DNA of 64,000 nucleotides, taken from Botryllus schlosseri (Eukaryota). Positions 9,705 through 53,625 of this stretch are shown here, piece after piece. Made by a program: the position numbers and the translations under genes. The notes beneath the pieces are model-generated. The model ran no database searches. It was not told the DNA's origin and worked only from the letters and a program-made list of their open reading frames with translations. Numbering within the stretch: position 1 is the stretch's first letter; every line of letters begins with the position of its first letter. The DNA lies in contig CM119371.1 of the NCBI GenBank assembly GCA_051294905.1, positions 40,736,001 through 40,800,000 of the forward strand, in the 5' to 3' direction.

Positions 9705-9932
9705 CTAATAATATACCGAACCAAACCATGACTCACAATATAAAACTTCCAACTCAGCATCGATATCATTTGCAATCTTCTGGGCTTTCTTCAAATCGTC
9801 TCCTTTCAACACGTCATATTCACGATTGCATATCAATGTTACTTTCTTCAAAGTAGGGTTGTTGACGAGAGACGAAACGTCATCGACTGAAGCACGACAT
9901 CCAGCGGCAAATATGCATCTGATGCATTCGAT
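9705..9932 (-). CDS. Putative terminal exon of the NLR-like gene (IECIRCIFAAGC...WFGSVYY*)
   Basis: Acceptor ctcccgtcgcag|ATCGAA, phase 0, 75 open codons then stop. LRR-like 'LVNNPTLKKVTLIC'. Confidence 0.6.
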   Translation of the reverse strand: MECIRCIFAAGCRASVDDVSSLVNNPTLKKVTLICNREYDVLKGDDLKKAQKIANDIDAELEVLYCESWFGSVYY

Positions 9933-10038
9933 CTGCGACGGGAGAATATTACTATTAGTATTATATATTATAATGATGCTTCTTGCTATTGCTAGCCTTT
10001 TCACCAGGGGATATGATTTTTTACATGGTACTTTGGAT

Positions 10039-10653
10039 CAGGGGTGGCCAACCTTTTTGCCGTTCACGGCAAAATTTTGTCTACTGATGTCGTCTACAGC
10101 CGCCTTCCAAGAAATAGTCGTGATGAACTAAGTGGAAAACAAATAGCCTATCCATGTTAAACTGCCCATGTTCATTTCCGGTGAACTCAGGACTACTCTA
10201 TTGATACATATTGGCACGCGAATTTCTGGAACCAATTGAGGTCGCACGAGCCATGAAATTTTTTCCAGGTTCGGGAATGAATTTTGTCACTTTGTTGCAT
10301 CCTAACTGTTGTTATTCCACCTCCCATCAGGATTGTCGGTATATAGTGGAAATATATTGAAATCGCCCAATAGAACCGGAATCAATTATCTTTCGTGAGG
10401 CGCACACGATTCCAAGTTGGTATTTGTATAATGGGCCCTTCATTCTCATATGCTGTTCACATTTGTACTGCGGGGCTCAGATTGCAAAGGGCGCTCTTGA
10501 ATTAAAATTGCGCAAAAAATATTTCCAAATTGATCACTATCGGGAGTCAATTTGTAAATTGAATATGCATGTTGAAGGCCCCCAAAAAATAATTGAATTA
10601 CGTGTCGAAGGGCGCACAAATTCCATTTTACGGCCTCAGGTACGCTATCCCTG
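10039..10653. mobile_element. hAT-type MITE
   Basis: CAGGGGTGGCCAACC...TATCCCTG termini flanked by 8-bp TSD CTTTGGAT/CTTTAGAT. Confidence 0.8.
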
Positions 10654-10840
10654 CTTTAGATAAACTTATTGATAATATTACGAACTCCGCAACTGGGGTG
10701 GATATGTAGGACAAGGAAAATAAGCTACTTCATGTGAAGGGGATTCGAGATGAACGGCAGAATTAAATAATAAACGTGCGTTGGTGGAATATGTAGCCTA
10801 CATTGAATCTATGCAAATAACACCAGATCATAATTACTAC

Positions 10841-11008
10841 CTTCTTTTGCTTGCAAGCTTCAACGATATTTCTGAATTCATCTCTTCTTGTGAAGTAGAA
10901 CATTGCATGGATACTGACGAAAGCGGAAATTTCTCTGGCACAGTTCAAATGTCTGTTGTAATCCTCGACGGACATCTGGCCATTCACAGCAATTTCAAAG
11001 ACCTCCAT
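10841..11008 (-). CDS. Putative internal exon of the NLR-like gene (MEVFEIAVNG...EACKQKK)
   Basis: 168-bp open phase 0-0 exon between gcatttaag| and AAG|gtagta; the acceptor is weak. Confidence 0.5.
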
Positions 11009-11185
11009 CTTAAATGCGGAAGACATAAGTTGTTAAATCTTGAAACAAGATTCGGTAATTTGATTAAAGACAGTTATTCCCAGAAGTTAAGATAGACGCC
11101 TAAAGAATGATCAATTCCGATTCTCAAGATATAATGATAGGGGAATATATACACGTGTTTGAAAAAATTCCATGAGGAATCGTAC

Positions 11186-11266
11186 TTGATACTTTTTCCG
11201 GTAAGTTTCAATTACCGACCAATCGACATCTTCTTCCTCCGTGCAATCGAGCAAGATCTTGTTTAT
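11186..11266 (-). CDS. Putative internal exon of the NLR-like gene (INKILLDCTEEEDVDWSVIETYRKKYQ)
   Basis: Acceptor ttgtgttcag|, open phase 0, donor CAA|gtacga (alternative donor TCG|gtaatt). Confidence 0.5.
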
Positions 11267-11519
11267 CTGAACACAATTTTGGTTTCATGAGTAATGATGA
11301 CACCATCGTGACGTGATCATGTATTGAAATCAATATTCATATTTTTACAGCAGAATAGTGATTTGTCAAAATAATTTGATTTATATAATTCATGATCTCT
11401 CGATAGAATCTACCGATGAATATTCTTTGTATTGCATTAACAAATGATGCAAGTAGTGGTGGTCAAAGTCGTCGTTACTCAAGTAGAAGTAGCGAGATAC
11501 AAGTAAGTAAAAAAGTGAT

Positions 11520-11820
11520 TACTCCAGGCAAAAGAATTAGGATTACAGCTACACAGTTCTTTCCAAAATAGATTAGAATTAGAATTAGAGCTACACAGTT
11601 TTTTCCAAATTAGAATAGAATTTGAATTACAGCTACACAGTTTTTTCCAAATTAGAATAGAATTTGAATTCGATCCACACATTATTTTCCAAATTAGATT
11701 TGAGTTACAATTTGAGCTACACATTTTTTTCCAATTAAATCAGAATTAGAATTAGAGCTACACAGTTTTTTTTTAAATTAGTTTAGATTTAGAGTTGGAA
11801 CTATACAGTTTTTTCCAGAC
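11520..11820. repeat. Degenerate minisatellite of about 42-44 bp (GCTACACAGTTTTTTCCAAATTAGAATTAGA-type); related sequence inverted at about 7470-7620
   Basis: About 7 visible repeats of CTACACA(G)TTTTTTCCAAAT. The motif GTCCAAATCTGA/TTCCAAGTCTGA and GAAAAAGCTG units also occur at 7490-7620. Confidence 0.75.
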
Positions 11821-12107
11821 AGCGTCAAATAAAATTTCGCTCTAAATTAGTGAAATTAGACAACTAGAGTTATCTCGTTTTCCAAGTCTGATGGTGAGTA
11901 ACGATCTATTTCTACTTCTTAAAATGACGAGTTTAATATCGCAATTTCACACAAAATTAACCAATTTGACGTCATTAATCATTTTGCGTAGGTCGCAGAG
12001 AACCATCTCGCAATTTAAAAGGTAGCCATCACCAATGAACTGCCGAATATTTGCGAACCGTTGACTAATAATACTTTTGAAAACTATTTATTTTGAGTAC
12101 TCATAAG

Positions 12108-12560: not shown

Positions 12561-12732
12561 AGCCTACTTCCACTTTCACTTGAAGTAGTTTTAATAGGTA
12601 TTTTGAAGAGCCAGTTCTACTTGTAATCGCGTATAAATTCAAGAAGTTGCTTCTACTTCTACTTGATTAACAAGGCTGAGTACTTTGACCAGCTCTGCGT
12701 ACATTCGAGACTCGACTCGCAATATTGGAGAC

Positions 12733-15355: not shown

Positions 15356-15511
15356 CTTTTCCAATTTGCAATCTGATAACTGCCGCAAGTCATTCTGCTT
15401 GGCCAACAGTTGTCGTTGTTCGTCAAATTTGATAAATTGTGCATCGAAAAGTATCCGGAGAAATACCACGTCAGCTACGTAATCAACCCGGTCGATAGAC
15501 AGAGTTGACTT
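15356..15511 (-). CDS. Putative internal exon of the NLR-like gene (KSTLSIDRVDYVADVVFLRILF...DCKLEK)
   Basis: Good acceptor attttcacag|, 156-bp open phase 0-0, donor AAG|gtcagt. Confidence 0.6.
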
Positions 15512-16810: not shown

Positions 16811-16909
16811 CTTGATGGCAAAGTGACCGCTAACAGGGCCAGTTATCTCGATGACATCTTCTCCGTTCTTCAAATCAAAACCCAATCCTACTGAAGACAG
16901 CTTGACAAC
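16811..16909 (-). CDS. Putative internal exon of the NLR-like gene (VVKLSSVGLGFDLKNGEDVIEITGPVSGHFAIK)
   Basis: Acceptor aattttcag|, 99-bp open phase 0-0, donor AAG|gttgga. Confidence 0.5.
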
Positions 16910-19688: not shown

Positions 19689-19793
19689 TTCCCAATCCAA
19701 ATTCCCAGATAGCGACTCAATCCAAAGATGTCCAAGTAATGAACGCAGTGCTGTTGATGAGAAATTGTTGCCTCTCAAATTCACATCTTTCAC
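19689..19793 (-). CDS. LRR exon of the NLR-like gene (VKDVNLRGNNFSSTALRSLLGHLWIESLSGNLDWE)
   Basis: Acceptor tcgtttcag|, LRR signature xxLxLxxNxF (VKDVNLRGNNF), 105 bp phase 0-0, donor GAA|gtgagc. Confidence 0.75.
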
Positions 19794-27352: not shown

Positions 27353-27387
<35 letters not shown>

Positions 27388-27704
27388 TATTCGGTCCATG
27401 AACATTGATAATACACATGGTATAGATAAATACAAAGGAAAGTATATATAATTCAGAACCAGGCTGTAGCGAAGGGATCGGGAGATCATCAAGTCAGCTA
27501 CAGCCTGAAAGGATGGTTGTAATATGAAACTTATCACATAATATAACACATTTGCAAGCAAAAAATATAACATATACGCAATGTATCAGAAACAGATGAA
27601 AAAATAAGTGGGATCACAGTAGGTAACCTGAATAGACGAGATAAAACAATTGCACTGGCTACAGGAACACAAACTAGACAAAGAGACGCTGATTGACACA
27701 TTTA

Positions 27705-30700
27705 TTAAGAATGTTCATATTTGCCTACAAGATATTCGTGAAACACTTGTTTAAAGATATGGAGTGGTTTATCTTTAATATGGGGTGGAATGGAGTTCCA
27801 TATACGAGGACCTTGGAAACTGATAGTCTTAGGATGTTCTCGGGGTAAGAATAGATTCATAGAAGAGCCTCGGGTATTGTGTGAATGGTGACTGGTGATA
27901 TGAGTGAAATAGTCTAGGAAGATTTCTGGTAGGCTCTCATTGTAGTAGCCATGCATGAGCTTACCTATTTCATAAAAGTGAATATCTTCAACTTTTAAGA
28001 TGTTCAAGCGACTATATAAAGGATTTACACTATCTCTGCGATTGGCGAGACAAGTCAATTTAATTGCTTTATTCTGCAGGCTTTTAATCCGATTCAAGTA
28101 TTTGGCTTTAGCTGAACCCCACAATACGACCCCATAAGTCAAGTGCGAGTGGAAGAGTGTGTGATATATTGTTAGTCGTGTGGAAAGTGGTAATAGGAAA
28201 CGAACTTTTCTTAAGATTCCTATGGCTTTCGATAGTTTAATGCAAATTGAATTAATGTGATCACCCCAGGATAGCTTATTATCTATAATTATGCCAAGAT
28301 AGGATAGAGACGTCTGGAAAGTAAGTCTTTCATTATTGAGCTTCAGTACTATGTCTTTTGGAGTACCTTTACCAAAGAACATACAGTGTGTTTTTGAAGT
28401 ATTTATTGTTAGTCTATTGCTACACATCCAGTCATATATTTTTATTAGATTTGCATTACATGAATACTCAAGGTCAGCCGTATTACAAGATGAGAGCATG
28501 AGAGATGTATCATCTACAAACAGTTGAATTGTGAAGTCCGATACATTGTCTATATCATTAATATAAATTAAAAATAGGAAAGGACCCAGAACTGATCCTT
28601 GAGGTACACCCATTTCAATTTCGAGCTTATCTGTTGAGACTTCACCATTTTTAACAAATTGCCATCTATTACATAAATAGGACTGTAGTAGCTTATACAT
28701 GTTACCCCTAACTCCATAGTGGGATAATTTCTCCAAGAGTATTGATCTATCCACTGTATCAAATGCCTTTTTTAGATCTAGAAAGATGCAGATGGTGGAT
28801 AGATTACTGAAAAGGTTTTTAGAGATGTTATTTATACTATCTATAACTGCATGCTGGGTTGAGTGACGCTCTCTGAAACCAAATTGTTTTCTGGATATTA
28901 TGCTAAATTTCTCAACGAAGCAAGTTAGCCTTTTAAGTATTAATTTTTCTATAATTTTAGAAAAAATAGGCAAAATAGAGATTGGTCTATAATTGGTGAG
29001 ATCTTTAGGATTGCCTTTCTTCAGAACAGGCGTGACTCTGGCTATTTTCAAAATATCATGGAAGATCCCAAGCTCGAAGCATTTATTGATCAGTTTAGTG
29101 AGTATAGGTAATATTGTATATATGATCTCTTTCAGAATAAAGACTGGAATACAATCTGGGCCTGTGGCTGTATCATTCTTAAATGAGTGAACTATCGCGA
29201 TGACTTCATTCTCAACGACTGGCTGGACAAAGGTAGAGTTCTGTTGTGGTTTATCGAGATATTTCTTGTAGTTATTGGTAGGCACATGTTTGTCAGCAAG
29301 GTTTCTGCCAATATTTGCAAAGTATTGGTTGAAAGCCTTGCATATGTCAAGTTCAGATGTTACGGTTGTATTGCCTATGCTGATTTTAGTTGGAAATTTT
29401 TTTTGCTCAGTTGATTTAAAAAGTTTATTAAAGAGCCCCCATGTTTTTGTTTGATCACCTTGGTTCTTATAAAATTGATCCTTGTAATAGTTGCTCTTCG
29501 ACTTTTTCTTCAATTTGGTGAATATATTTGTGTAATTTTTATACAGTTCCACTTTGCTATCTACACCGGAAAGAAAATGACTCTTGTAGAGTTTGCGTCG
29601 AGTCGCTATTGAGATTCGGATTGCAGAGGTCAGCCATGGTTTATTTGCGTATCTCATCTCCCTGCGAGTTTTTTTGCGGAGAGGTGCATGTTTTTCAATT
29701 AGGGAGTTGATGGTATTAATTAGAGATGAAAAGTTATTATTTATATCATCAGTTTGAGTTCTACTTTCGACTTCAAGGTCATTTATTGCATCAAAAAGTT
29801 CATTCGAGAAGTTGTCCTCCGAGAGATTTCTATAGTTACGAGTGTAGGCTATTTTGTGTTTCACTCCTACTGAAGCATTCATGATTTTACAGAAAGTTGG
29901 TAAGTGATCAGATATATCGCTTCTTAATATTCCGGATTGGTGCTCGACCTGATTGTTGGTGAATATGAGGTCAATTAGTGTCCTTGAGTTATGAGTTATT
30001 CTAGTTGGATCTTTAATTGATGAAAGACACGAGAAACATGATATTAGGTTGGACAGATCCACAGAATATTTGTTATCTGATTTAAGGAGGTCTATGTTGA
30101 AGTCTCCCAACAAGTAAAAAGTTTTTTGTTGTAGGGTCAACTTCTCGAAGCAATTTTCCATTGCATCTATGAATTGAGCCATCGATTGGTGAGGGTGTCT
30201 GTAGATTGCACCTATTATGATGTTTTCTCTCTTTTTTTTATTCACCAAAGTTATTTCAATCCACAGGTCTTCACAGCCTTGAAGATTCAGGCCAAACTCT
30301 GAAGTGATATGGAATTGGACATTGTTCCTAATATAGAACCCCACTCCACCCACTACTGTGGGAGAATTTGCATTGATAAATGTATATCCATCAATATGGA
30401 CGTCAAAAGGAAGGACAGTAGATAATCTCGTTTCACTTATGGCAAGTATGTCAGGATGTCTAGAAAACTCAGAAATTAACAAAGTGACTAAGCCACTGTT
30501 TTTAGGAAGTGATCTTACATTAGCATGTAGCATAGTAATATAAGGGCTATCATCAGTAGGAGCATTAAATTCTTCTATACTATAATAATTATAGAATCCC
30601 TTAGGTATGTCAGAGCTAGATAAATTTTTGACATAAGATAATTCCCTAGTTAGTTGCATGTTGTCAAGTGATGAAAATGGTAACTCCGAGTTTAGGCATT

Positions 30701-30866
30701 GGCAGCAATAATAATACTCATCAGTAGTTCCGATAAGATTGAATTGCGGTGTCGTCAGTTTGGTGCACTTCAAATGAGTCCAGTAGTCACAGATATCACA
30801 GCAAATGCAAGGCTGATTTGACTTGCATGGTTTGTTGCAATAGCCACATGGAAATAAGACGGGCAT
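27705..30866 (-). CDS. LINE ORF2: PHD finger + APE endonuclease + reverse transcriptase (1053 aa)
   Basis: N-terminal C4HC3 pattern (CGYC..CICCDIC..WTHLKC..CCQC), EN motifs (NVRSL, ISETRL, GDFNID, SDHLP) and RT motifs (NYRPIS, LDLKKAFD, GVPQGSVLGP, FVDDT). Confidence 0.95.
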   Translation of the reverse strand: MPVLFPCGYCNKPCKSNQPCICCDICDYWTHLKCTKLTTPQFNLIGTTDEYYYCCQCLNSELPFSSLDNMQLTRELSYVKNLSSSDIPKGFYNYYSIEEFNAPTDDSPYITMLHANVRSLPKNSGLVTLLISEFSRHPDILAISETRLSTVLPFDVHIDGYTFINANSPTVVGGVGFYIRNNVQFHITSEFGLNLQGCEDLWIEITLVNKKKRENIIIGAIYRHPHQSMAQFIDAMENCFEKLTLQQKTFYLLGDFNIDLLKSDNKYSVDLSNLISCFSCLSSIKDPTRITHNSRTLIDLIFTNNQVEHQSGILRSDISDHLPTFCKIMNASVGVKHKIAYTRNYRNLSEDNFSNELFDAINDLEVESRTQTDDINNNFSSLINTINSLIEKHAPLRKKTRREMRYANKPWLTSAIRISIATRRKLYKSHFLSGVDSKVELYKNYTNIFTKLKKKSKSNYYKDQFYKNQGDQTKTWGLFNKLFKSTEQKKFPTKISIGNTTVTSELDICKAFNQYFANIGRNLADKHVPTNNYKKYLDKPQQNSTFVQPVVENEVIAIVHSFKNDTATGPDCIPVFILKEIIYTILPILTKLINKCFELGIFHDILKIARVTPVLKKGNPKDLTNYRPISILPIFSKIIEKLILKRLTCFVEKFSIISRKQFGFRERHSTQHAVIDSINNISKNLFSNLSTICIFLDLKKAFDTVDRSILLEKLSHYGVRGNMYKLLQSYLCNRWQFVKNGEVSTDKLEIEMGVPQGSVLGPFLFLIYINDIDNVSDFTIQLFVDDTSLMLSSCNTADLEYSCNANLIKIYDWMCSNRLTINTSKTHCMFFGKGTPKDIVLKLNNERLTFQTSLSYLGIIIDNKLSWGDHINSICIKLSKAIGILRKVRFLLPLSTRLTIYHTLFHSHLTYGVVLWGSAKAKYLNRIKSLQNKAIKLTCLANRRDSVNPLYSRLNILKVEDIHFYEIGKLMHGYYNESLPEIFLDYFTHITSHHSHNTRGSSMNLFLPREHPKTISFQGPRIWNSIPPHIKDKPLHIFKQVFHEYLVGKYEHS

Positions 30867-30906
30867 TTTCTTATCTATTGATCAAGGCTGAATTAGTGGT
30901 TACAGT

Positions 30907-31698: not shown

Positions 31699-31838
31699 AT
31701 AATGATATAAGTTATCAATCTGCTGTATTAGGGCTGGCTATATGCATCTCAATTTCTCATCTGAGATCTGCATCTTATCACAATTAATATCATTATAGAG
31801 CTATCGTTATAAAGCTATGATTTGATGAAGTGACTCAC

Positions 31839-32254
31839 TTGAATTGTATTCTTTATGCACCTTGTGATGATGCCCAACAGCTCATCGTCGATACTGCAGT
31901 TGTTTAAATTCAAAGACCGAAGGCTCTGACTTCTTGCTGCAAGCGATCCAACGACGTGAGCTTGATCGCGACTCAGTGAGATGCGAGATGCTTCGATGAC
32001 GTCAAGACCTTTCATGAGATCGTCGTCGTCTGATTCATAGATCGTTGTGTAAAGCTCCATGAGAGTGCTGCGGTCATCGAAGGCGTCAAGACCTTTCATG
32101 AGCTTGCCGTTGTCTGATACATAGTTCAATGAGCGGAGTAAAACACGAAAACGGTCAGTGGCTTCGTAAATGCCTTCGTTTCTCCCTGCAATCTTCTCGG
32201 GTTGAAGGCAGAGTGATTGCGCCAAAACCTGTTTCTTTTCCGTTCCATCGGAGA
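31839..32254 (-). CDS. Post-NACHT / first LRR exon of the NLR-like gene
   Basis: Acceptor ctcgacacag| in phase 1 (matches the NACHT exon donor), 416 bp open, ribonuclease-inhibitor-type LRR 'SLRSLNLNNCSIDDELLGII', donor CAA|gtgagt. Confidence 0.85.
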
Positions 32255-36932: not shown

Positions 36933-37038
36933 CCTACGACTAGATGTCTGCGCGGTTACATAATTTCTAGAATCCACACTCTTCATAAACGTATAGTCGT
37001 GTATTAACTGGCTGACCGTGCGCAAAATTTAATCAAGC

Positions 37039-40735: not shown

Positions 40736-42130
40736 CTTTGTAAAGATCGTTTTGTGATTTGGAGAAGACGACGCCTGCCACGAATCGACGCACAACGGAC
40801 CATCGTTCTCCATGGAGATGTTCTTCATCGAAGCGAGAGAACTCGTTGATCTTCATTTCTGTTATAAAAATCGCTGCCAGATATTCTTGAAGGCTTTGAT
40901 GACAGAAAAATAATGTGAAATTCCCTTCCATCAAATGTCGGCTTAGTAGGTTGTTCCCCGGAACTTTAGTCATCAAATCTTGGACTTCATCTGCCGAAAT
41001 TCCAAATTCCTTCAAGACCGTCTCTTTGAACACGACCCGTCCTTCACTCATGCCTCGAAATGCCAATGCCTTCAGTTTGTTGACGATCGATAAAATTTGT
41101 TCCCGATTTCGAATGTTTTCGACGCTCTGTAGAGATGATATGATCCTGTTGTATAGCTCTGTCACCGTTGTTGGAGGAGGTTTATCTGGATCCCTGCCCA
41201 TCACAACTGCCGTTAGAATCAGGAAAACGGGCACAGAGATCAAATTGAGCAATCTTGGTGACATGGTTTCAATTTTCTGCCAGAGCTTCTCACCATTCTC
41301 TTTGAGTAAAAATGCAAATAGCCTATGCGCGTCTTCATACATAAGGCCATTTAGCGTGATGATGGTTTCGGGTCGCGCCATCGCCGGTAACTCTGAAACC
41401 TTGAACTCACGTGAAGCTATGTAGACATTAACGTGACGCAGGATATTCCGGGATAAAATGTTGTGCATGACTGTCCCGCAGCTTGCTTTTTCGTACTGTT
41501 TTATTTTGCGTGGATTTTTCTCAAAATCCCACCTTGTTTGATCAAGCCCGTCAAATATTAGGAGTGCCTCGGATTGATGTTTATCCAGCCATTTGAATGC
41601 CTGATCCTCTTCAAATTCACTTTCGAAGAGCCCTCCAAATAAAAATTTTGATGGTTTAATATCGTCCTTCACTTCAACGTCTTTCAATTCAATATAATGA
41701 ACCATTCTTTTACCGAAAGAGGGCAGATCTTCAAAATGCTCAATTTTCGGGGATGCGCCGAGAGCTCGTCGAGCTATTCTCCGTGTAAGTGTAGATTTTC
41801 CCGATCCTGCAGATGCCACAATAGCGGTTATACCAACTGTTCCTGAAGAGCCTGATTTTTTCTTTTGCCACATGGATGCCACTACGTCATCGATGCCGAT
41901 ATCTTTCGCTTCAATCGTGTCCTTCCGAAGAAATCCAACTTCCTGTGTCAGCTGATTATGGCCATAGCGACCTTTGTAATAATCATCAACGTCAATTTGA
42001 CGCATTTGTGGGTTAACTTCAAAGTCAGGTTGCTGAAGCTTTTCATGTCGAAAATCATCAAGGATATCAATGGCCGTCACTTTCATGGTGTTTTCGTTGC
42101 AAATTTGTACAAACTTTTCCTCGCTAATAT
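40736..42130 (-). CDS. NACHT NTPase exon of an NLR-like protein
   Basis: 1395-bp phase 1-1 exon (tttttcag| ... AAAG|gttag). Walker A ASAGSGKST, Walker B LLIFDGLDQ, sensor IASR, LISVPVFL, LAFRGM and winged-helix FCHQSLQEYLAA are all standard NACHT landmarks. Confidence 0.93.
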
Positions 42131-42764
42131 CTGAAAAATAAGATATGGCAATTATATATATGAATGATAGAGAAAAATTCAAATCTATTCATAGATACAG
42201 TTTGACGAGCAATTGTTGTCATACGGTAAATTGACTGCAGATGCACGCAGGCAATAAGACTTTGTTTGTCAGGACTGGCAATATATAGCTGAAAGGTAAC
42301 ATCCCCAGGAATGATAATGCATTTACGCACAAGGAAAACAATAATTACAGTGGCAGTCGTCCATATTTTCTACGCTAACGCGAATATCAGGTTGGGATAG
42401 CTATTAGTTGTCCGGTATATGAGCATGTGAAATATTGAATACGACACAAAACCTGCTGTAATTGCTTGGTATCACAAGATAAGTTGACTGGCTAAAGAGG
42501 TAATGAGTATTCCTTGTGAAAGAGCGTTCAGTTTGTGTGGAAATATGTTTGTTTATAATAAAATATATTCTGTCATTCCACAAGTTCAAATCGGGGTTTC
42601 TCACACTATTTCACCCGATCCTCCCCTTGCCGCGAACCAGGTATCAACGTCCCCAAACCTGCGACACGATCGTTACCACATCGCTATTTTGAGACTAGAT
42701 TCAGCCTAAAGAAATCGCATAAAACATAGTGAGCATTGAAACAGCGACAGCAAGTATATCCCAC

Positions 42765-42905
42765 CTTTGTTTGGTGCTGAATGTTCGGCACCGTTGGCGT
42801 GATGATGGTGTTGAATAATCTGGTTCCCAGCTATGACGTTTACCGAGCTATTTTCGAATGTTTGAGCAATTTGTCCCTCGGCTAATTTCGCAGATTTTGC
42901 AGAAC
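42765..42905 (-). CDS. Exon just upstream of NACHT with a RHIM-like motif (GSAKSAKLAEGQIAQTFENSSVNVIAGNQIIQHHHH...PNK)
   Basis: Acceptor ctcttcacag|, 141-bp phase 1-1, donor AAAG|gtggga. In frame with the NACHT exon and homologous to exon 51729-51875. Confidence 0.7.
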
Positions 42906-45326
42906 CTGTGAAGAGTTCGACGTGTGAAGTCGGGTACAGGCTGTTCGGATGATAAATGCAAGATGCTATCTCTCTATTCGGTCTTTTCGGTGCTTTCTCG
43001 CTACGCCCGTATAGTTTGATGTTCAATTTAGTACAGCATTTCACATACCTCAAGCGAATTTCACGCTATGACTTTCATAACGTAGAACGTAATTGGTCTC
43101 TGTCAGCTTCGTGAGTCCATTAGGAATATCATCTAGTCTAAATAGCACCTCATTCGATGTTTTTAAATTAATATTTTGAAAAAAAACGGCTTTCTTGTGT
43201 GGTGATCAGCCATTTTGGTTGCCCCGAAGATGCAACTTGCAATTTCAAGAGTATATAGCACTGCCTCGAGAGTATAGTACAGCCTCACTTTTGTTTTCAT
43301 TTGCTTTTATTCACTATTTAAATCAGTATTTCTTCTAACTCCACTTGAATTGGTTTTACATTTATTCGGATGGACTACGTTTACTCGTATGTAAATTGTG
43401 GTGTTACTTTTCTCTGTACTTGAGTACAACGGCTGTTTACGTTGTCAACTTAGGAACAAACCGATTGATGACTATACGCCTGAAAAAAACTATTACTTTG
43501 ATCCGTTTCCAATGAAGTTGATGGTCTCTTTAAAATTTCGTCATCGTCTCCTCGAATATTCTTCAATGAATATGAATAATATGACTCAATTTATAGCTGA
43601 AAAAGATTACACGAAAGCCAGATGATTATTTGCACAAGTAACATTGATGTCATATTTTATTTTTGTTATTGGAATTCTGGCTCTGCCCTAAGGCTTACAA
43701 ACCCCAGAACAATGGTTCCAATGTGAATGATATCGCTGCCCTGGATACGATTTTGCGAAAGAGCCAAAAAAGTGTTTAAATTTACCTAGTCTACAGGCAA
43801 AACTGCACGAGCAGGTGGCCACAACATATAACCTACTTTAAAAGAAACAGTAAACAAAAATAACATCACCGATGTCGGCTAGTCTCTAAAGGGGCGATAA
43901 AGATATGCTAGGCTTGATAAGGAGGCGATGATGGAGAATCTTCCTGAACTACCGGTCAATAACCTATATATATGGTTACCATAAACGTCTCCCTTTTTCA
44001 GTTTTTAAAAATGTTCTCCGAGGATGTCCAAATGTCCTCATTTTTGGGAATTTTTCCTCCTTTACAGCTTCAAGAGCTAATGATAGTGGATAGATTCGAA
44101 GGGAAATGAGCATAAATAACGCTAAATAAAAAAATCGTGGTTCGACGAAAATGACGACCTTTTTTTAGTCAACCAACGTAAAGTGCAAGGAAAAACTGTG
44201 TTCCTGGAGTTGAGCCGGGGAGTTTTCCTTTTACTAATTTTTAGTCAGACGGCCAAGAAGTGGGAAAAATTTACCATTTTTCCGCATTGTGCTCCACAAT
44301 TCTAAGTCTAAAAATTAAAAAAAAGTGTCCTCCTTTCCCGATTCCAAAATATGGTAACCCTACACTTTGGAATACTACGTCAAGTATAGTATGTACGGTG
44401 TAAGTGAGACTTAACGAGCGCAAGTTACGAGCACACAGTCAAACGCATGCAGGCTACAAAAACGACAATGAGGCTTAAAGATGCATATCACCAATACAAA
44501 GAAGTGCGATGATTTGGAAGAGATGTTGCGTGACATGATCATTTCCATTGATTTTGTCTGTCCTGGATTTCCTACAAAATGTGAATCGGACGTTGCGATA
44601 ACAGCGTATATTGGGCTGCTTATAAATTAGATCCACACGAAATAGTGCGGTGCAAGGGCATTGTGTAAAGCCAGTGTGGTAAACACTGAATTAAACTGTA
44701 ATTTCGGACTGAATTATCTTCGTTTACCTATTACAGTGGATTATACAATGTTGACGTCCGGTGTGTTATCAAATATTTCGTAAATTCAGAATTTCGTATG
44801 GTATATTATAAAATCTTTTTGCAATACTAATACAAACGAGGATCGTATATTCACTATCATTATGATTTTTCAAAAAGCTTCCTGTCACATTTTGTAATTC
44901 TACTGCAATGGTATGCTTTCACGAACGGAGATTGGCCCAATGAGTAATTGCATACATAATATTTGCAACACTCTCATATGGAATAATTAAAGTCCAACCA
45001 AATAATAGTGAACATGCCATCATTACAGTTTTGCGTCAGTTTGATGCTGATTAGTCGACAGGTTGAATGTTATGATGTCGAAGTACGAACATTTCTTATC
45101 AACTATTTTACATCTTTGTACAAGTTCTGCAGAAGTACCTATTATCGTATTCGATTGCAAAATGAGCAGAGTGCTACGATTGCATATTCACACCGAATAC
45201 ATTGAATTATCAGACGCTTCGCTGTTCAATTGTACAAATATATTTACTAACTGGTAAATATATGATTTCAGAGCTTGTGTAGATATCGTAAATAGATGCA
45301 TATTTGGACCATTAACAGACATCATC

Positions 45327-45712
45327 GTTTGTATTTGTATTTCATCGAACAATTTTTTTGGCCCTTATCGCCGATAAGGTCATTTACGCCCGATCATGTA
45401 TTGTCCATGATTGTCCTTTGCTTTGTCTTTGCTTGTAGTGCGATATTTGCGAACGATTACCAGTCACACTCTTTTCCACTCTCTCACGCCCGAGTCCTCG
45501 TCAGAGTCAGTTGACAGTAACTTTTCGTTAGCTCGACCCTACTTGCTTCATCTGGGCTTCATGCACGACACTGCATATGCACTTTATGCAGTGAGATCAG
45601 AGATGAGGAGTCCAGATAAATGTCCGACCGACACATAGAAGTAGGTCCGAACCGGAATTGGAACCTCTGCCATTGGTGTCGTGACTCTGGTACATAACCA
45701 ACTGTGCCACTT
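45327..45712 (-). mobile_element. tRNA-derived SINE (older copy)
   Basis: The minus-strand head GTGGCACAGTTGGTT...GGTTCCAATTCCGG resembles A and B boxes. The body is homologous to 56480-56600 (GATGAGGAG.CCAGATAAA, GACACATAGAAGT, CCATTGGTGTCGTGAC). Confidence 0.7.
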
Positions 45713-48099
45713 GCTTCCCAGACATCAGACATAATCACAAGTTGTTTATTGGATTACTGACGATGATTACTGGTGCGGTGTGGTTGATAATTATACCAGA
45801 CACACGAACGAGTGACTCTATTCACGCTATAGTTATCATCAAACATTGCATACATTAAGTAAAAGCTAAATCATGTACCATTGTGCGTTGCATCATGCTC
45901 AGACAATATCACGCATTTCTCCGATTAGGCGACCGCGCCATCGGTGTTTTGGCTGGTTCTTGCAAATATTGGAAACTTTCTATTGTAGGTTAAAGTTTCT
46001 GCATGGTTTACCAGTCATATCCACCCTCCACTCGTTTCTACACATCCTGCTGCTTGGTTTTATATCGAAATGCCGAAACAGATAGTTGTGAGGAATTAAT
46101 CGACTCAGCGAATCCATCAGGAGCCTTTCTGATGCAAACTTTATGTGGGGTTTGTAAATATTGGATCATGATTTCCTTCTTATTGCAATCCGGTTTAGTA
46201 TATATTACAGTTTAAATCGTGAATTTAACCACTTAAAATTATCACACCACAATTCACACAATATATTCACGGCCAAACCGTCAAAAAAGTGAATGAATAA
46301 GGTCCCGAGTCTGCCAATGGCCATACTTATAATCTCGCGCTTAAGCGCCACATTTTGAGTTCGACTTCAACCTTACACCGTCCTCAAATACCATAGCCCG
46401 CCAAATATAACTCGAGGGAACACTGAGAGAGCAATAAACATGGTCAAATACCACGTGCTCTACTTGAAAACATTTGCATGCCACTAGATTTGTCCACGTA
46501 GGGTACCAAAGTTTAAGAAACACCGCCTTACATGAAAAACTTCATCAGCATGAATATTGGTTAGTTGAAATACTGATAAGCGAAAAACGAGATTTTCCAC
46601 GAACTTCTTGACTTTTTTAATTCGACTTCACGCGTAATCTCTACGGTTATCCTATACATGCGTTGATGAGACTCATTGCTGCTAATCCATGTATCACCCC
46701 TGTATTCTTCTTATAATTTGCTCAGCATTTATTGTTACTTATTGGCATTTGGACGGAGATAATAAAGTTCGCGGATGCGGGAGAATGCTAATCCTATGAA
46801 TAAATACTTCTAATTGCGACGAGTAAAGTTGGAAAAGGTTACGCACGATGGTTGGCCGAGGTGTCCCGAGTTTTCAATCAAGAGGCGTTATCTGTTGCAT
46901 CATAATGCGAAAACGCGTTATAGGCTGGAAAGTGTCAATTTGTTGAATGAAACAGCAGCCTGCTGAAAACTATTCTGCCACTGCAATAGGTAGAATTATC
47001 ATCACTGCGAAATGAAAGTCGTGTCCAATTCGTACGGTACAGCTAAGAAACGGATTATAGAATGGTGATATCGCTCTGCAATAGCGGGTACATAATTCGT
47101 TGATTGTTTAGTGAAGATATCACCCTCTAGGACAGACCTGGGCAAAGTGCGGCCCGCGGGCCAAATGCGGCCTGCGAAGCTATTCTGTGCGGCCCGCAAA
47201 AGATTGCTTGGAATTCAAAACATAGAACTTGCTTTTCGAATGACTGGCAGGCTGCATCAAATGAAATTCGTTTACTTTGAAGCCTGTCCAAGTGTCCATT
47301 AAAATGCCACGATTACGCCGCCTATACGCACCTCGTGTGAGTTATCCAGATTCAAAACAAAGGCAATGTGGCAGAGTGTGGGTAGCAATTTAAGACACAA
47401 TAAATCACTCTTTCTCTCTCTATATATTTTTAAACCTTCTTTGTTGCCATTGTCACATTATACGCATTCAAATTGTTACGGCATACGTTACCAAATCCCT
47501 AATCTCGCGAATACTGTTATTTGAGTCATCATGTCTATCACCCATGAAGGTTGCGCGGGCATGTGAAAATAAAAAAGCCGAAAAATGAAATTCAAAGAAG
47601 GTTTAGAGAAGTGGTTCCCGACATTTCCGACTCCTCGTTCCCTTATCAAGCTCAACACAAATTTTCGCCCACTTATTTACGGATCCGATATACGGGGTAT
47701 ATCAACGGGTTATTTATTCACCACAATTTGATCGCTGGGCATTTGGCAAAAAAAAGAAAGGTAATTTTTCCGAGTAGGTATTCCGACAACCGGTTTCTGC
47801 GACCGAGTCTACTTTCCATTGAGTTGACCTTATTTTTCGTCAACTTTCCAATCATATGGAGAATTAGCCGTCTTCACTTGCATTTTTGGCCGTGTTCATT
47901 AAATATATCTCACAAGACGTTCTAACATTTTCGTCCTCCGTCGCCCACTTTGGTATTTTCGACCCTTTTATTTTTCAAAATCACCCACGTTAGGAACCAC
48001 TGGTTTAGAGCACCAAATATTTGTATACTGAAGTCAGGGACGAACCAGTCCTTTTTTGCCGAGCATGTCGCCGAAATTAAGGATTTTAATTGAAGTCGG

Positions 48100-50730
48100 A
48101 AGATAATTACTGAACCCACAAGAATAACTGATCAATCCAAAACTCTACTAGATCACTTCTACTGCAACACTCATCAATATCACCTGTCCCCTTTTGTGCT
48201 CCAACACAGTATGACTGATCACTATCCCATCATCTGCCACATGAAATTGGCCCTGCCACATAGTGTTAAAGAATTTGAATCTCGAACGCCCTTAAACCCA
48301 CGCGGTATAGAGGAGTATATTGAAATTGTCAGCAATACCTTCAACAACTACAAAATTCCTCCACTCACAACTGACAACTACAACTGCCATTTTGAAAAAT
48401 TTATTGAGGAACTGCGGGCAGCCCTCGACACATCTTTCCCAATTAGGAAAGTCAACCGCAATGCAAGGCGCTTGAAATCGAAACCCTGGATTGGTCATGA
48501 CATACTAGTTGCAATCAAAACAAGGGATTGGATGCATAAGCACTACTATCTGCAAGGCACCATCGAAGGCAAAAAAGTGTACAAAAAATATGCAAACCAA
48601 GTGACGCATATGAAAGGAAATGCCAAAAAAACATACTTCCAAAAAAGATTCGAAGAGTGCTCCAAAGATCCCAAGAACACATGGAAAACCATTGGAGAAA
48701 TTATCAACCTAACTAAAGGTAATGCTCCCAAGAGTACTGATGACATCGAGCTACTCGAGAATGGCAGCACCATCAAAGACCAGCTTGCAGTAGCAGAAAA
48801 GTTCAATCAGTATTTTTGCAACATTGGTCCGGATCTTGCAGCTTCAATACCAAACTCCTCCGATGACTTTCTCTCGTACTTGAGTCCTGGCCCTCAGAAA
48901 TCCATTTTTCTTGAGCCGACAAGTGAAGGAGAAGTTGCGATCGTATTATCTGAAATGGAAAGTAACAAAGCAGTAGGACCCGATCTCATCCCAACTCACT
49001 TTCTGAAGCTAGTCTTTAATATTATTGGTGATGTTATATGCATTTTCTTTAATGAGTCGATACGTCTAGGCATTTTCCCAGATGCACTGAAAACTGCCAG
49101 AGTAATGCCATTGTTTAAGAAAGGCTGTAAAAAGCTAATTTCTAACTACCGACCAATATCTGTTTTGCCAAATCTTGCCACGGTTTTTGAGAAACTGATT
49201 GACTGCCGACTTAAGAACTTTTTTGAATTGAATGCAGTACTGTCTCCGACCCAGCATGGATTCAGATCCAACCACAACACCAACCATGCAATACTATCAA
49301 TTGTAACGGACTATTACAAAACCATCAAGCAAAAAGAAAGTGGCAGCAGCATTTTTATCGATCTCCGCAAAGCTTTCGACACAGTTAACCACAGAATCTT
49401 AAGATACAAGCTAGAACACTATGGAATCAGGGGTATTGCAGCAACTCTACTTGAAAGCTACCTGGCAAACCGCAAACAATTTGTTAAACTTGGGACATTA
49501 AGAACGACTACCAGAGATATAACTTGTGGAGTGCCACAAGGCTCAGTCATTGGACCGACTTTTTTCTTCATTTATATTAACGACATTGTTAATGCATCTT
49601 TATTCCGCACAACGCTATTTGCTGATGATACTCACCTCTTCATAACCTCCAACACTGTCGATGATTTGCATGCATCTGTGAATAGGGAACTCCCAAAAGT
49701 GTCGAGATGGCTGCAAGCAAACAAACTAAGTTTGAATGCAGATAAGACCGAGATGCTCGTTTTAAATAATGCCAGTCATAATTTCACTGTGAACATCAAT
49801 CATAAACAAATCTCACTATGTGACTCAGCAAAATATCTCGTCGTCACCATTGATTCCAAATTGTCTTGGAAGCAGCATATTGAATGCACAATATCAAAAC
49901 TAGCTCGGTGTGTGGGAATAATGACCCGTCTCCAATCTTTGGTTTCCAGATCAGTACTACGAACCATCTACTTCTCTCTTTTCCACTCGCATCTGCAATA
50001 TGGAATCGTAGTATGGGGAAATGCATGTACAACATTTTTGTGCAGAATTCGAACCCTGCAAAACCGTGCGATACGGCTGATCTCATCTGTACCTTTACGT
50101 ACCAATTTATCGCCTTACTACCGTAAGCATCGAATTTTGCGAGTTGATGAACTGTATCGCTTCGAAGTATCAAAAGTTGTTCACAAATATTTTTCCAATA
50201 GTCTCCCTCCTGTGTTTGATGACTTTTTCATACCTGCTAAACATGTCCATTCCCATTACACGAGATCTTCGTCTAAAGGAAACGTCTACTTACCCCAACC
50301 CAATAGCAACCTAACTAAGAGATCTATCGACTACTCGGGACCTATCATCTGGAATGCATTACCATCACATATCCGTGAATTGCCTTATAATAGATTCAAA
50401 AAAGCCCTACTTGATCACCTCTTGTCGTTACACTAACACTGTTGCCCTACCTCGCCCAGACATTGCTTCATTGATCATTTGCTACCATTGTTTAATTTTT
50501 TTTATATTTTCCTTTCCTAACTAAACATTTTTTCACAGCCAGACTGTTCTGAGTCAAGTGTACCTGTTTGATGCTGGTGTGATCAGACTAGATGACCTTC
50601 ACGGTCTTATCGATCATTCCTATCTAATACCGAATACTGTGCACGCATATTTTCTGTACCACCATCACTGCCGTTTGTTATGTATTTTGGTTCGATGAAA
50701 ATAAAGACTCTCTCTCTCTCTCTCTCTCTC
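48100..50730 (+). mobile_element. 5'-truncated CR1/L2-group LINE
   Basis: Frame opens near 48100 (IITEPTRITDQSKTLLDHF...TDHYPI, end of EN). 3' hairpin TGATC-AGACTAGATGACCTTCACGGTCTTATC-GATCA (50580-50616), AATAAA and a (CT)n tail to 50730. Confidence 0.93.
48196..50436 (+). CDS. LINE ORF2 remnant: end of endonuclease + intact reverse transcriptase
   Basis: KPWI, NYRPIS, QHGFR, IDLRKAFDTV, GVPQGSVIGP, FADDT; 746 aa uninterrupted. Confidence 0.9.
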   Translation: MLQHSMTDHYPIICHMKLALPHSVKEFESRTPLNPRGIEEYIEIVSNTFNNYKIPPLTTDNYNCHFEKFIEELRAALDTSFPIRKVNRNARRLKSKPWIGHDILVAIKTRDWMHKHYYLQGTIEGKKVYKKYANQVTHMKGNAKKTYFQKRFEECSKDPKNTWKTIGEIINLTKGNAPKSTDDIELLENGSTIKDQLAVAEKFNQYFCNIGPDLAASIPNSSDDFLSYLSPGPQKSIFLEPTSEGEVAIVLSEMESNKAVGPDLIPTHFLKLVFNIIGDVICIFFNESIRLGIFPDALKTARVMPLFKKGCKKLISNYRPISVLPNLATVFEKLIDCRLKNFFELNAVLSPTQHGFRSNHNTNHAILSIVTDYYKTIKQKESGSSIFIDLRKAFDTVNHRILRYKLEHYGIRGIAATLLESYLANRKQFVKLGTLRTTTRDITCGVPQGSVIGPTFFFIYINDIVNASLFRTTLFADDTHLFITSNTVDDLHASVNRELPKVSRWLQANKLSLNADKTEMLVLNNASHNFTVNINHKQISLCDSAKYLVVTIDSKLSWKQHIECTISKLARCVGIMTRLQSLVSRSVLRTIYFSLFHSHLQYGIVVWGNACTTFLCRIRTLQNRAIRLISSVPLRTNLSPYYRKHRILRVDELYRFEVSKVVHKYFSNSLPPVFDDFFIPAKHVHSHYTRSSSKGNVYLPQPNSNLTKRSIDYSGPIIWNALPSHIRELPYNRFKKALLDHLLSLH

Positions 50731-50864
50731 TTATAGCGAAAAGACGAAACACTTTTCAGAAAAACTGCAAGCTTCGCTCAACATCAAGACTGTTTAAGCT
50801 GTACACTGATCGGAAGGCAGTGACCAGGAAAATAAGATTTGTGCTATCGATATACATTTCAGTG

Positions 50865-51148
50865 CAGTGGTTCTCGAACTGGCGGCGTGAAAGCATCTGA
50901 TTTGGGGCGTGAAACCGACGTTTACTGAAAGATTTGTTCGTGCTTCGCGCCATTTAATTCCAGCTTCTGGTTGTTATCCTGTGCATTATCCGACTTTGAT
51001 ATTTCATAATTCTCTCATCAACAGCGAAAACCTTCCATGCTAGCGTTCTGGTTGCGCCTTTTAATATTTTGTGATATCATTATAAGTGGGCGCGCAATTT
51101 TTCACTATCATAAAAGCAGGCGTGCTTAAAGAAGTTTGAGAACCACTG
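50865..51148. mobile_element. hAT-type MITE nested in 47133-51412
   Basis: CAGTGGTTCTC(G)AACT / AGTTTGAGAACCACTG TIRs with TSD TTTCAGTG/TTTTAGTG. Confidence 0.85.
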
Positions 51149-51728
51149 TTTTAGTGTCTTAATAGAATAACGTAGATGGATAGGGGTTTACAGAGATTTA
51201 AAATTGTATCAGGTTTAACATTGTTTCGAACCATGACGGCAAATACACATTACCTAACATCAACACAACCACCGAGCAGCATTTAATATCAATGTAATTT
51301 AGAAATAAAATCAAAATACGCTGGGGAATATACCTAGAATTTTTCTGTTGGCCCGCCAACGTATTTTCTACTTCTCATTTGGCCCGCGGAGGAAAATAAC
51401 TGCCCACCCCTGCTCTAGGAGACAATCGGCACGGTCATTATCGGGAATAATTGTGCGTATAGGAATGGTTCGCAGTGTACGTCGTTTTTACAGTTGGTTA
51501 TCTATAGTTTGTTCCGTCGAAACGCAGAGCTTACTGGAGTTTCCAATCATTGTATTGATATCATTGGTTCCGGCTTGTTAAATCATGAGATTAACACTGA
51601 CTTTTCTTCGCTGCGACTGGTTTCCTTAATCCTGGGTTGATATATTCTGACGACCGCGATAACTGACTTCATTGATCCAACATAATTATCTCTGATCTTA
51701 GAGTTGAATAAACGGTCATTACACAAAC

Positions 51729-51875
51729 CTTCGTGTACGTCACTGGCTTCTCCCTCCGTGTTGATTATATTGCGAACACCTTTGATTGGGAGGATCTGAT
51801 CTCCAGCCATCACGTTGACAGTGCTATTTATGAAACTTTGTTCCACATTGTCACCTTCAGCCAACGTTGCGGCTC
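51729..51875 (-). CDS. Exon with a RHIM-like motif (GAATLAEGDNVEQSFINSTVNVMAGDQILPIKG...DVHE)
   Basis: Acceptor tttatactag|, 147-bp phase 1-1, donor GAAG|gtttgt. Clear paralogy with exon 42765-42905. Confidence 0.65.
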
Positions 51876-52337
51876 CTAGTATAAACATGATTGTTGTTAT
51901 GCCCGCAAGGATAAGGAAGATGGCATAATAACAAAATACGGTATGTTGAAAACCTTTTCCATCTCTTATTGGCCAATATTTAGTTATGGCTTGTTTGCAG
52001 TCGGATCAAGATTCGATGATTACACATTGCTAATATTAATATTGATGTTGAGTATGCATTCCAATATGACGTGCATTACTAACCGCATGTCTGGGCAGAT
52101 ATTGGTGCAGACATTGCATCGGACACAGCAGAGCTTTGATCTTGATCCTTTGCCGACATGGTATTATTCACTTGATACTAAATTACAGGCGTGTTATACA
52201 ATACTAAAGATAAACGGATAGGAAATACAGAATATCATTAATTTTATTTGTGTAACAGCTCGATACTAAGAATTCCGGTGCATATAAAAATATTTCAGAA
52301 TAGTCATTAGAATTCGAAGTTGTACACATCCCCGTAC

Positions 52338-52368
52338 CCAAAAATGCGTAACTCCATAAATCCTCTGG
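52338..52368 (-). CDS. Possible 31-bp exon (PEDLWSYAFL) linking the death-domain-like exons to the RHIM-like exon
   Basis: ctacatttcag| ... TTGG|gtacgg supplies the needed phase 0-to-1 link. Inferred from phase compatibility only. Confidence 0.25.
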
Positions 52369-52462
52369 CTGAAATGTAGTTGCAGTTTTTCTGGCCAAAA
52401 TAAAATTATTACCTTTTCGGTAATGAGACACAATCCTGCTTAAGTTGACCCCAATAGAGAGC

Positions 52463-52640
52463 AGGGCTGTGGAGTCGGAGTCGGTGCAGTCGGAGTCGGA
52501 GTTTGGCTAATTTTCTCTTGATGGAGTCGGAGTCGGGAAAACTATAATGGCTGGAGTCGGAGTCGTGGGTAAAATACTGACTGGAGTCGGAGTCAGAGTT
52601 TGGGAAAATGACCCTGACTTCGACTCCGACTCCGACTCCA
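52463..52640. mobile_element. MITE built from GGAGTC/GACTCC repeats
   Basis: CAGGGCTGTGGAGTCGGAGTCGG start, with inverted CTCCGACTCCGACTCCA at the end. Confidence 0.7.
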
Positions 52641-53177
52641 ACTTATCAATCATGAAAACAATTGCTTTCAAAGGATTTTCAATAGAATTTTTATGTACCA
52701 CCAATCTCTGTTATTAATAATCATTCAGATCAGGTGCGGCCAACTCGTGTCACGCAGGCCAAATGTGGCCCGCAAGAAGGTTTTGTGTGGTCTGCGAGGT
52801 AATTCCCGAAATTATTTATAACATCAGGTAAAATTGCAAGGCCAACCAAAATTTGATCATCCTGACCGCGAAATTTGATGATGACTAAGACATCAGCCAG
52901 CTCTGACACATTGGCGTATCCGGGGACCAGCCACATGTATCGCAGGTCTTCGTATATGACCAATTGACTGTAAAGTAGAATATTTCGTAGCAGATTTATT
53001 TGACTTGAAATTTTTCTCGGTACTTCGCATGATTTATTGTCACTGGATTATTTGCATTCAATATTGGAGCTCCCTCTGAAAATCGTAAATACATATTATT
53101 TACAGAATTGAGTCTAACTATATTCGCAATTAGTAGATAACGTGTCGTCCAACATACGGCTTAGCTGGTTCACTCAC

Positions 53178-53274
53178 AGCGAGATCGTCGTCGACGAAAT
53201 ATTTGCACAAAATGATAGAGGCATATTCACCGAAACTGTCGATATTGCTATGTCTAACGTCGAATAATTCTGTC
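53178..53274 (-). CDS. Putative exon, death-domain-like (TELFDVRHSNIDSFGEYASIILCKYFVDDDLA)
   Basis: Acceptor atttggctag| in phase 2, strong donor GCT|gtgagt. Joins the upstream exon in frame. Confidence 0.4.
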
Positions 53275-53542
53275 CTAGCCAAATAAGCCCAGTGGTATAC
53301 AGATGCGACCCCCAATATATGTTGGTAAGAGTAACATATTTATTGATAGAATTCTGTCATTACCTTGAAAAAAATTTCGCGTGATCCAGATCGTGAAGCA
53401 ATTATTGAGCTTACGTGTACTATTTCTGCTCGATGCCGGTTTTGGCGGTAGCCACTTAAACTTGTACTTAAATAGAAATTGAAGTCGTTACTTTAATTCC
53501 ATTTGATTTTTAACGAGGACTATCCTGAGCACCTTTAATCAC

Positions 53543-53625
53543 CGACAAAACTTCGTAAACCTTATCCCAATATTATGACAGATTACGCGGACTAGCATCT
53601 CTAAAGTCGTTACATCTTGAGCCAT
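53543..53625 (-). CDS. Putative first coding exon, death-domain-like (MAQDVTTLEMLVRVICHNIGIRFTKFCR)
   Basis: ATG in good context (CAGTATGG). 'ICHNIGIRFTKFCR' resembles the death-domain helix 1-2 pattern IxxxIGxxWxxfxR. Donor CG|gtgatt. Confidence 0.4.

Follow-up and report, generated by a model that had tools for sequence, protein, structure and literature searches.

Gene Model and Exon Conservation

The window analysed here (the whole 64-kb stretch G000:C1:40736001-40800000 of the 495.5-Mb Botryllus schlosseri genome) carries on its minus strand a gene of the NOD-like receptor (NLR) type, with two copies of a 25-residue motif ahead of its NACHT domain and a variable tail behind it. Judged by the conservation of its exons, this gene is real and belongs to a large family of at least 91 loci. 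An initial annotation had joined 13 minus-strand segments, and these do show AG..GT edges throughout, with phases that chain into 3147 nt (1048 aa and a stop); an open frame with intact AG..GT edges is, however, no proof of exons by itself. Ten of the 13 exons were retained and exons 1, 2 and 3 were dropped, whereas the accompanying caution that further exons might have been missed was justified by a first coding exon at 52159-52084 and a decayed small exon at 43571-43497. The revised model comprises 3012 nt and 1003 aa, without internal stop and with intact splice edges. Its features are as follows (exon numbers are those of the initial annotation; paralog counts refer to 14 loci):

52084..52159, minus strand: first coding exon, with ATG, phase-1 donor and 25 low-complexity codons; an exon of this kind (ATG, phase-1 donor) at 11/17 motif loci, the window included
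51729..51875, minus strand: exon 4, first motif exon, phase 1-1, with the 25-residue core at 51870-51796; 146 genome matches at E<=1; donor used in a joint of run X1
43497..43571, minus strand: what remains of a small spacer exon (phase 1-1) that in the window copy has lost its acceptor and 5' part; joint 51727-43571 in run X1
42765..42905, minus strand: exon 5, second motif exon, phase 1-1, core one residue shorter; also in paralogs A and B; break of contig 9 (run X14) at 42906
40736..42130, minus strand: exon 6, NACHT exon with Walker A, Walker B (DGLDQ), PVF motif and probable winged helix (FCHQ); Pfam NACHT E 5e-15; 91 loci scored; 14/14 paralogs
31839..32254, minus strand: exon 7, end of the helical region and first leucine-rich repeats (LRRs); LRR_6 E 0.028, match to an LRR profile of NLRs at E 7e-4; 13/14 paralogs
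19689..19793, minus strand: exon 8, LRR exon, phase 0, 105 nt; 10/14 paralogs, always 105 nt
16811..16909, minus strand: exon 9, tail exon, phase 0; 9/14 paralogs
15356..15511, minus strand: exon 10, tail exon, phase 0; 9/14 paralogs
11186..11266, minus strand: exon 11, tail exon, phase 0, 81 nt; 14/14 paralogs, 81-84 nt
10841..11008, minus strand: exon 12, tail exon, phase 0, 168 nt; 13/14 paralogs; omega 0.62 (7 close copies)
9705..9932, minus strand: exon 13, last exon with the stop, beta-alpha-beta-alpha-beta with hypervariable positions after strands; 111 genome matches; pLDDT 84; omega 0.81 (9 close copies); 14/14 paralogs

Exons 6-13 recur in the same order and with AG/GT edges in the 14 paralogous loci, and the lengths of exons 8-12 are nearly fixed among them. 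Absences are mostly confined to four divergent copies, and exon 7, which in the window is longer than the paralog versions and apparently contains an internal duplication, is missing from duplicate B. Among the 91 scored NACHT loci, the last exon lies on the same strand within 70 kb downstream in 72 and upstream in 9. Since most of the introns between exons 6 and 13 are short in compact paralogs, little room would remain there for missed exons. Exons 4 and 5 also stand, being present in paralogs A and B; the donor of exon 4 is used by one contig of the RNA-like run X1, and the acceptor of exon 5 is the break point of a contig of run X14.

Corrected 5' End

The initial annotation had regarded the 5' exons as its least certain part, and it is exons 1-3 that failed. 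Proposed exon 2 (53274-53178) was rejected because it lies inside a high-copy dispersed repeat outside the coding sequence, found by a repeat search of the genome:

52462..53381, strand not assigned: dispersed repeat of about 920 bp that holds proposed exon 2

This repeat yielded 3844 candidates, 40 of which were scored, with matches on all 16 large contigs (C1-C16), and in paralog A it sits in another intron, within the tail. Proposed exons 1 (53625-53543) and 3 (52368-52338) were rejected as well, since they matched only duplicate B among the three paralogs tested; duplicate B is 93-95% identical to the window across the introns around them. The ATG exon at 52159-52084 takes their place. In 10 of the 11 loci with this exon an in-frame stop lies at most 16 codons upstream of the ATG, which argues that no coding exon precedes it and that no other N-terminal domain is encoded. 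An acceptor at about 52203, leaving 44 nt of 5' untranslated region, is likely for this first coding exon.

The death-domain-like N-terminus of the initial annotation is not supported, its exon 2 being repeat-derived and a conserved ATG exon taking its place. No Pfam death-fold domain matched exons 1, 2, 4 or 5 (exon 3 is too short for the scan). The N-terminus of the revised protein, about 120 residues, consists of the leader and the motif copies, and no six-helix death-fold domain was found in it; 70 residues are in any case short for a death fold with its six helices.

The 25-Residue Motif

The two motif copies occupy about residues 28-52 and 79-102 of the revised protein, one from each of exons 4 and 5. 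The Asn/Val/Gly-type core has the consensus A-T-L-A-E-G-E/D-N-V-x-Q-x-F-x-N-S-x-V-N-V-V-A-G-D-Q and is under purifying selection (pS 0.71, near saturation, and pN 0.24, over 595 pairs from 35 ungapped copies; 36 had been collected, and exon 5 of the window was dropped owing to an indel). Leu3 and Gly23 are invariant in all 35 copies, and the motif can be 76% identical between genes whose NACHT domains are only 23% identical. The core is rich in Val, Asn, Ala, Gly and Gln, contains 0.3% Pro, and its hydrophobic positions alternate. A monomer model of the motif exon showed no globular fold on its own (pLDDT 59, pTM 0.21), and a four-copy complex prediction scored 0.09 against a mark of 0.32, which is evidence neither way.

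These exons had been called RHIM-like. They are real and conserved, but their identity as RHIMs fails, and by its sequence the motif is non-RHIM. None of 34 motif members matched the Pfam RHIM model (PF12721), which may miss divergent RHIMs, and a genome search with this model gave three matches, all below the cut-off and none at a motif locus. The RHIM core tetrad is given as V/I-Q-V/I-G in the accessible part of PMC12119088. This tetrad is absent from the motif, in which V-V-A-G predominates at the four positions up to and including the invariant Gly, Gln not being among the residues listed for the second. The motif profile also found no PDB sequence at E<=10.

Distribution of the Motif among NLRs, Kinases and Other Carriers

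In the genome the motif gave 146 matches at E<=1 (150 of 157 candidates scored), and the NACHT exon 115 matches, from the 91 scored of 219 candidate loci. A motif lies within 25 kb upstream in 50 of the 91 NACHT loci, against 3 with one downstream. By position, 84 of the 146 matches stand upstream of a clade-1 NACHT or last exon; the other 62 were compared with 37 NACHT positions and with 30 of the 70 kinase positions (those in regions near matches), and here 30 precede other NACHT loci (within 35 kb), 6 precede IRE1-like kinases and 26 received no assignment. The other NACHT clades that carry the motif are mostly 21-29% identical to clade 1 or to one another.

The six kinase-linked matches lie 1.2-5.2 kb upstream of single-exon kinase domains that are IRE1-like by their best PDB matches (E 2.5e-28), and motif donor and kinase acceptor are both of phase 1 at the two loci checked. 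Compared with the window, the kinase-linked copies have saturated pS (0.78-0.94) and pN of 0.21-0.25, i.e., the protein pattern has been kept. No KEN ribonuclease was detected by Pfam at E<=0.05 in four downstream open reading frames (ORFs), the downstream exons being partly modelled. The motif was further found, at one locus each, upstream of an SH2 domain and tyrosine kinase (C10:27.53 Mb), of another kinase (C5:24.95 Mb), and of RING (C3:16.43 Mb), TPR (C3:34.95 Mb) and NHL (C8:3.86 Mb) exons. In every carrier examined it precedes the other domains, and the motif-bearing non-NLR loci are not adjacent to NLRs. The fetched flanks of several others among the 26 matches held nothing assignable. 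A search of the genome for the MLKL_N family gave no match, and none in the controls either, so that it is uninformative.

Several observations concern these loci and their surroundings. The IRE1-like kinases form an expansion of 70 single-exon loci at E<=1e-20, clustered on C3 (16.1-17.6 and 20.0-21.7 Mb), C10 and C4; one of them, at C1:39.287 Mb, is 66 kb from the NLR cluster that holds the window. At C3:20.75 Mb, on the strand opposite a kinase, a stretch scored 25.4 with a two-block motif matrix, the other 29 strand scans reaching at most 17.2; it may be a divergent copy of the motif that belongs to a neighbouring gene. Duplicated small exons, with three ORFs without a Pfam match, lie downstream of the kinase at C5:3.177 Mb; by eye they resemble the KH-type repeats of PARP14/DTX3L. 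The SH2/tyrosine kinase at C10:27.52 Mb has Asn at the usual position of the catalytic Asp and no DFG, and it may be a pseudokinase. The kinase piece at C5:24.94 Mb found no PDB match at E<=1e-8. At C3:21.63 Mb, a motif match is followed, some 14 kb further downstream, by a GH116 glucosylceramidase-like gene in two long ORFs, which is probably unrelated.

NACHT Domain, LRRs and Variable Tail

Domain calls were made exon by exon. The description of the gene as an invertebrate NLR with a fast-evolving tail proved sound. Exon 6 contains a Pfam NACHT domain at 56.1 bits, against a cut-off of 26.7, and its Walker A and Walker B motifs are the same in 15/15 loci; Ala replaces the first Gly in Walker A, and in Walker B the second Asp is followed by Gln. 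A probable winged helix with an FCHQ motif follows (NOD2_WH, E 1.8e-4, 22 bits, just below the cut-off of 23.1). The best named match of the NACHT exon is a Styela clava protein with 27% identity, and a search for spliced full-length homologs returned 10 close matches, whose lengths all approximate that of the NACHT exon by itself.

Of the proposed divergent LRR tail, about three LRRs were matched. The match to LRR profiles of NLRs spans about 80 residues in exons 7 and 8 (E 7e-4, probability 27%), Pfam LRR_6 staying below its cut-off; the remaining ~240 residues matched no family, and aligning the tail profile with itself revealed no internal repeat. The last exon has a predicted beta-alpha-beta-alpha-beta fold, for which Foldseek returned no match at E<=0.001 and the best VIA match (Z 6.4, rmsd 2.5, 71 aligned) was to generic alpha/beta proteins; there was no LRR entry among the fold matches listed, a piece of 75 residues being too short to tell a solenoid from a compact domain. 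Omega is 0.27-0.35 for the NACHT exon, against the higher values listed above for exons 12 and 13. In nine close paralogs of the last exon, 5-8 residue types occur just after the first two strands and 1-3 in nearly all other columns; in larger paralog sets, whole-exon omega is not above 1. This variability would fit a ligand-binding surface under diversification.

RNA Evidence

Reads were placed on positions 41900-61899 only, and the results below come from the 15 of 186 joints and 12 of 70 between-joint rows that were listed. The RNA runs are from other individuals, 6-13% of each raw run was read, and run X1 was taken as RNA by guess. Among the joints listed, none corresponds to the proposed junctions of exons 1-2, 2-3, 3-4, 4-5 or 5-6, which says little, and none involves the ATG exon at 52159-52084. 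The X1 contig joins the donor of exon 4 to the small exon at 43571 (51727-43571); the letters at this joint fit paralog A (4 mismatches in 22) and not the window, and the small exon is intact in paralog A. Skipping it keeps the frame. The X14 contig breaks at the acceptor of exon 5 yet extends 62 nt into the next intron.

A Motif-like Stretch before a Styela clava Kinase

A profile search of 1.84 billion representatives found no named carrier of the motif. Its 18 matches comprise 13 short unnamed proteins with the look of translated single exons, and 5 long repeat proteins, which were rejected as carriers since their scores are sums of weak pieces. The best match of the IRE1-like kinase is Styela clava XP_039257913.1 (37% identity), in which residues 54-79, before the kinase domain, show both conserved blocks of the motif with a spacer one residue shorter. 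With a post hoc two-block matrix this stretch scores 35.1, a value that none of 5000 shuffles reaches and that exceeds the best of 156 other proteins (22.5). We regard it as suggestive of an old link between motif and kinase. An atlas search with the Styela stretch gave no usable match. XP_039262434.1, a Styela clava NACHT-LRR protein, has long further C-terminal domains, and its last 40 residues are rich in Asn, Gln, Gly and Ile with a Q-I-N-I element; this end, which has no match to the 25-residue motif, is possibly a different low-complexity motif.

Proposed Mechanism and Alternative Explanations

We lean towards reading the 1003-aa protein as an NLR-type sensor, composed of a leader, two motifs, a NACHT domain, about three LRRs and a variable tail, in which the motif would couple NLRs to motif-bearing kinases. 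A homotypic interaction is the probable role of the motif, since it most simply explains why the motif is better conserved than the NACHT domains it accompanies and why signalling enzymes carry it too. An amyloid-type fold, proposed because of the composition of the motif and by analogy with fungal NLRs, is put forward with some hesitation. By what holds for NLRs in general, the variable tail would sense a ligand, the NACHT domain would oligomerise, and the doubled motifs, once clustered, would stack as short beta strands; as other proteins carry the motif too, the stack would recruit these, the IRE1-like kinases being the most likely partners, and proximity would switch the kinases on. The motif might in this way fill the role of a death-fold domain or RHIM. 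Its extension, that styelid ascidians have an amyloid-type motif of their own which replaces death folds on well over 100 NLRs of several deep clades, couples them to IRE1-like kinases and predates, in its link to the kinases, the split from Styela, is a more doubtful proposition that we offer as a possibility.

A number of points weigh against this interpretation. The matrix that gave the Styela stretch its score of 35.1 was designed after the stretch had been seen, and that score lies below those of all 33 family members (41.6-62.2); a plain hidden Markov model gives the stretch 3.6 bits, which 16 of 2000 shuffles reach, and the closest Styela NACHT protein, XP_039262434.1, lacks the motif. 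The motif was detected at only 6 of the 70 IRE1-like kinase loci, a further 15 such loci showed none within 6 kb upstream, and the linkage of motif and kinase exons is one of proximity and phase. In contrast to the two-gene systems of fungi, no carrier was found with the motif C-terminal on a death effector. The motif has no match to amyloid motifs in Pfam or PDB, and exon 4 as a whole has an omega of 1.29 among its three closest copies, with few sites.

The main rival is that the motif is a short linear motif with which each carrier docks on one common globular partner (an adaptor, ubiquitin ligase, chaperone or protease), so that NLRs and kinases would not stack. It would explain why the motif, in the carriers examined, is always upstream of other domains and never at the C-terminal end of an effector; a fixed binding surface would agree with the spacing of 20 residues between the invariant Leu and Gly, and the motif has no similarity to known amyloid motifs. 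However, tandem copies on separate exons are what amyloid signalling motifs show, according to the accessible part of PMC9815663, and we consider docking rather unlikely. The motif is nearly proline-free and beta-prone. For a docking motif, moreover, 25 conserved residues are long. A motif acting in cis, packed on the NACHT domain to keep it inactive, with the kinase and other copies as by-products of phase-1 exon shuffling, is improbable: although 114 of the 146 matches belong by position to NACHT genes, the phase 1-1 exon is easily shuffled and some carriers, e.g., the NHL locus, also keep the NLR-type first exon, the kinase-linked copies retain the protein pattern, and the NACHT domains that the motif would need to fit are far less conserved than the motif itself.

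Two further readings concern the gene itself. The model of the initial annotation, in which exons 1-3 encode a death-fold domain and two true RHIMs come next, has in its favour an open frame with GT-AG edges that is also found in duplicate B; with exon 2 inside a repeat that occupies a different intron in paralog A, a conserved ATG exon between exons 3 and 4 and no RHIM match, it appears largely refuted, and we give it very little chance. That the window copy is decaying or silent, which would be compatible with the other readings, is unlikely; in its favour are the small exon without its acceptor, the intact-looking long interspersed nuclear element (LINE) 27 nt past the donor of exon 7, listed reads that differ from the window, and a raw-read depth at the start of the NACHT exon of about 1.3 in run X18 and 0 in run X22. 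Against it stand the 3012-nt frame, free of internal stops and with intact splice edges, and the low omega of the NACHT exon, and the runs, partly read, are those of other individuals. Duplicate B (C1:40.06-40.15 Mb), where exon 6 (phase 1) would be joined to exon 8 (phase 0) with a shift of frame since exon 7 has no match, may be a pseudogene.

Comparison with Known Systems

By its NTPase the gene of the window is a NACHT-class NLR and not a death-fold NLR. It shares a NACHT domain and, probably, a winged helix and ribonuclease-inhibitor-type LRRs with the vertebrate NLRC3/NOD-type NLRs, coral NLRs and Styela clava XP_039262434.1 (22-27% identity), but it differs in that it has no CARD, PYD, DED or FISNA, and its roughly three recognisable LRRs are followed by a tail of ~240 residues without detectable family. 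The closest precedent, as far as the accessible text of Kajava et al. 2014 (PMC4262963) describes it, is the amphioxus RHIM-NACHT-repeat protein BF82280 of Branchiostoma floridae, likewise an animal NACHT receptor with a short non-globular motif in the usual place of the death fold; in amphioxus, too, the motif is common to heterogeneous immune proteins. The ascidian motif differs in that it fails the RHIM tests and occurs at more than 100 loci. According to the same portion of that paper, tunicates appear to lack RHIMs, and the part available of PMC12119088 reports that no RIPK1 homolog was found in tunicates.

Fungal NLRs carry N-terminal amyloid motifs common to NLR and effector (accessible part of PMC9815663). 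With the NWD2/HET-S, PP and PUASM systems, as presented in the portions available of PMC9815663 and PMC12881547, the ascidian NLR shares an N-terminal motif, in single or doubled copies, on a NACHT receptor with variable C-terminal repeats, and the G-N/D-x ending of its motif resembles the GND pattern of PUASM and HRAM1. It differs from them in that neither an effector gene next to it nor a HeLo/MLKL-type effector with a C-terminal copy of the motif was found, the candidate partners are kinases with an N-terminal motif, and there is no sequence match in Pfam or PDB, RHIM, cRHIM and HET-s motifs having been compared by Pfam and PDB searches only, without direct profile comparison. With the RIPK1/RIPK3 necrosome (accessible part of PMC12119088) the ascidian proteins have in common a short shared motif that could cluster and activate a kinase; the ascidian kinases, however, are IRE1-like, with the motif before rather than after the kinase domain and without the V/I-Q-V/I-G tetrad.

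No description of this NLR family or its motif was found in a literature search in which subscription journals were poorly covered, and the accessible parts of PMC8662601 and PMC9505182 do not describe the family. Tunicates are the sister group of vertebrates, and NLR signalling in them is poorly described; a motif that is present on a large NLR family as well as ahead of kinases points to the start and the end of a candidate pathway. If it is amyloid, the signalling motifs of metazoan NLRs would no longer be confined to the RHIM class.

Mobile Elements around the Gene

Several LINE regions and a large insertion lie in the window:

27357-31812, minus strand: LINE with ORF1 (276 aa), ORF2 (1058 aa; PHD-like, endonuclease, reverse transcriptase) and a (CT)n tail, 27 nt after the donor of exon 7
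about 54219-62830: 8.6-kb insertion with terminal inverted repeats of 2080 nt (98% complementary) and AGTAG..CTACT ends, absent from duplicate B
48094-50436, plus strand: LINE fragment with a 780-aa ORF (reverse transcriptase)
2437-4022, minus strand: LINE reverse transcriptase region in two frames

The LINE at 27357-31812 has the same orientation as the NLR gene and is absent at the matching site in paralog A. The 8.6-kb insertion shows an apparent target duplication of 6 bp and no ORF of at least 120 aa, and looks non-autonomous; its ends presumably recall those of Polinton/Maverick elements. Within the LINE fragment at 48094-50436, reads skip 686 nt (48949-49636) with minus-strand GT-AG ends (170 reads in run X18 and 801 in run X22), at a depth far above that of the NLR exons; the probable source is an abundant transcript of another copy, into which an antisense piece of the LINE is spliced.

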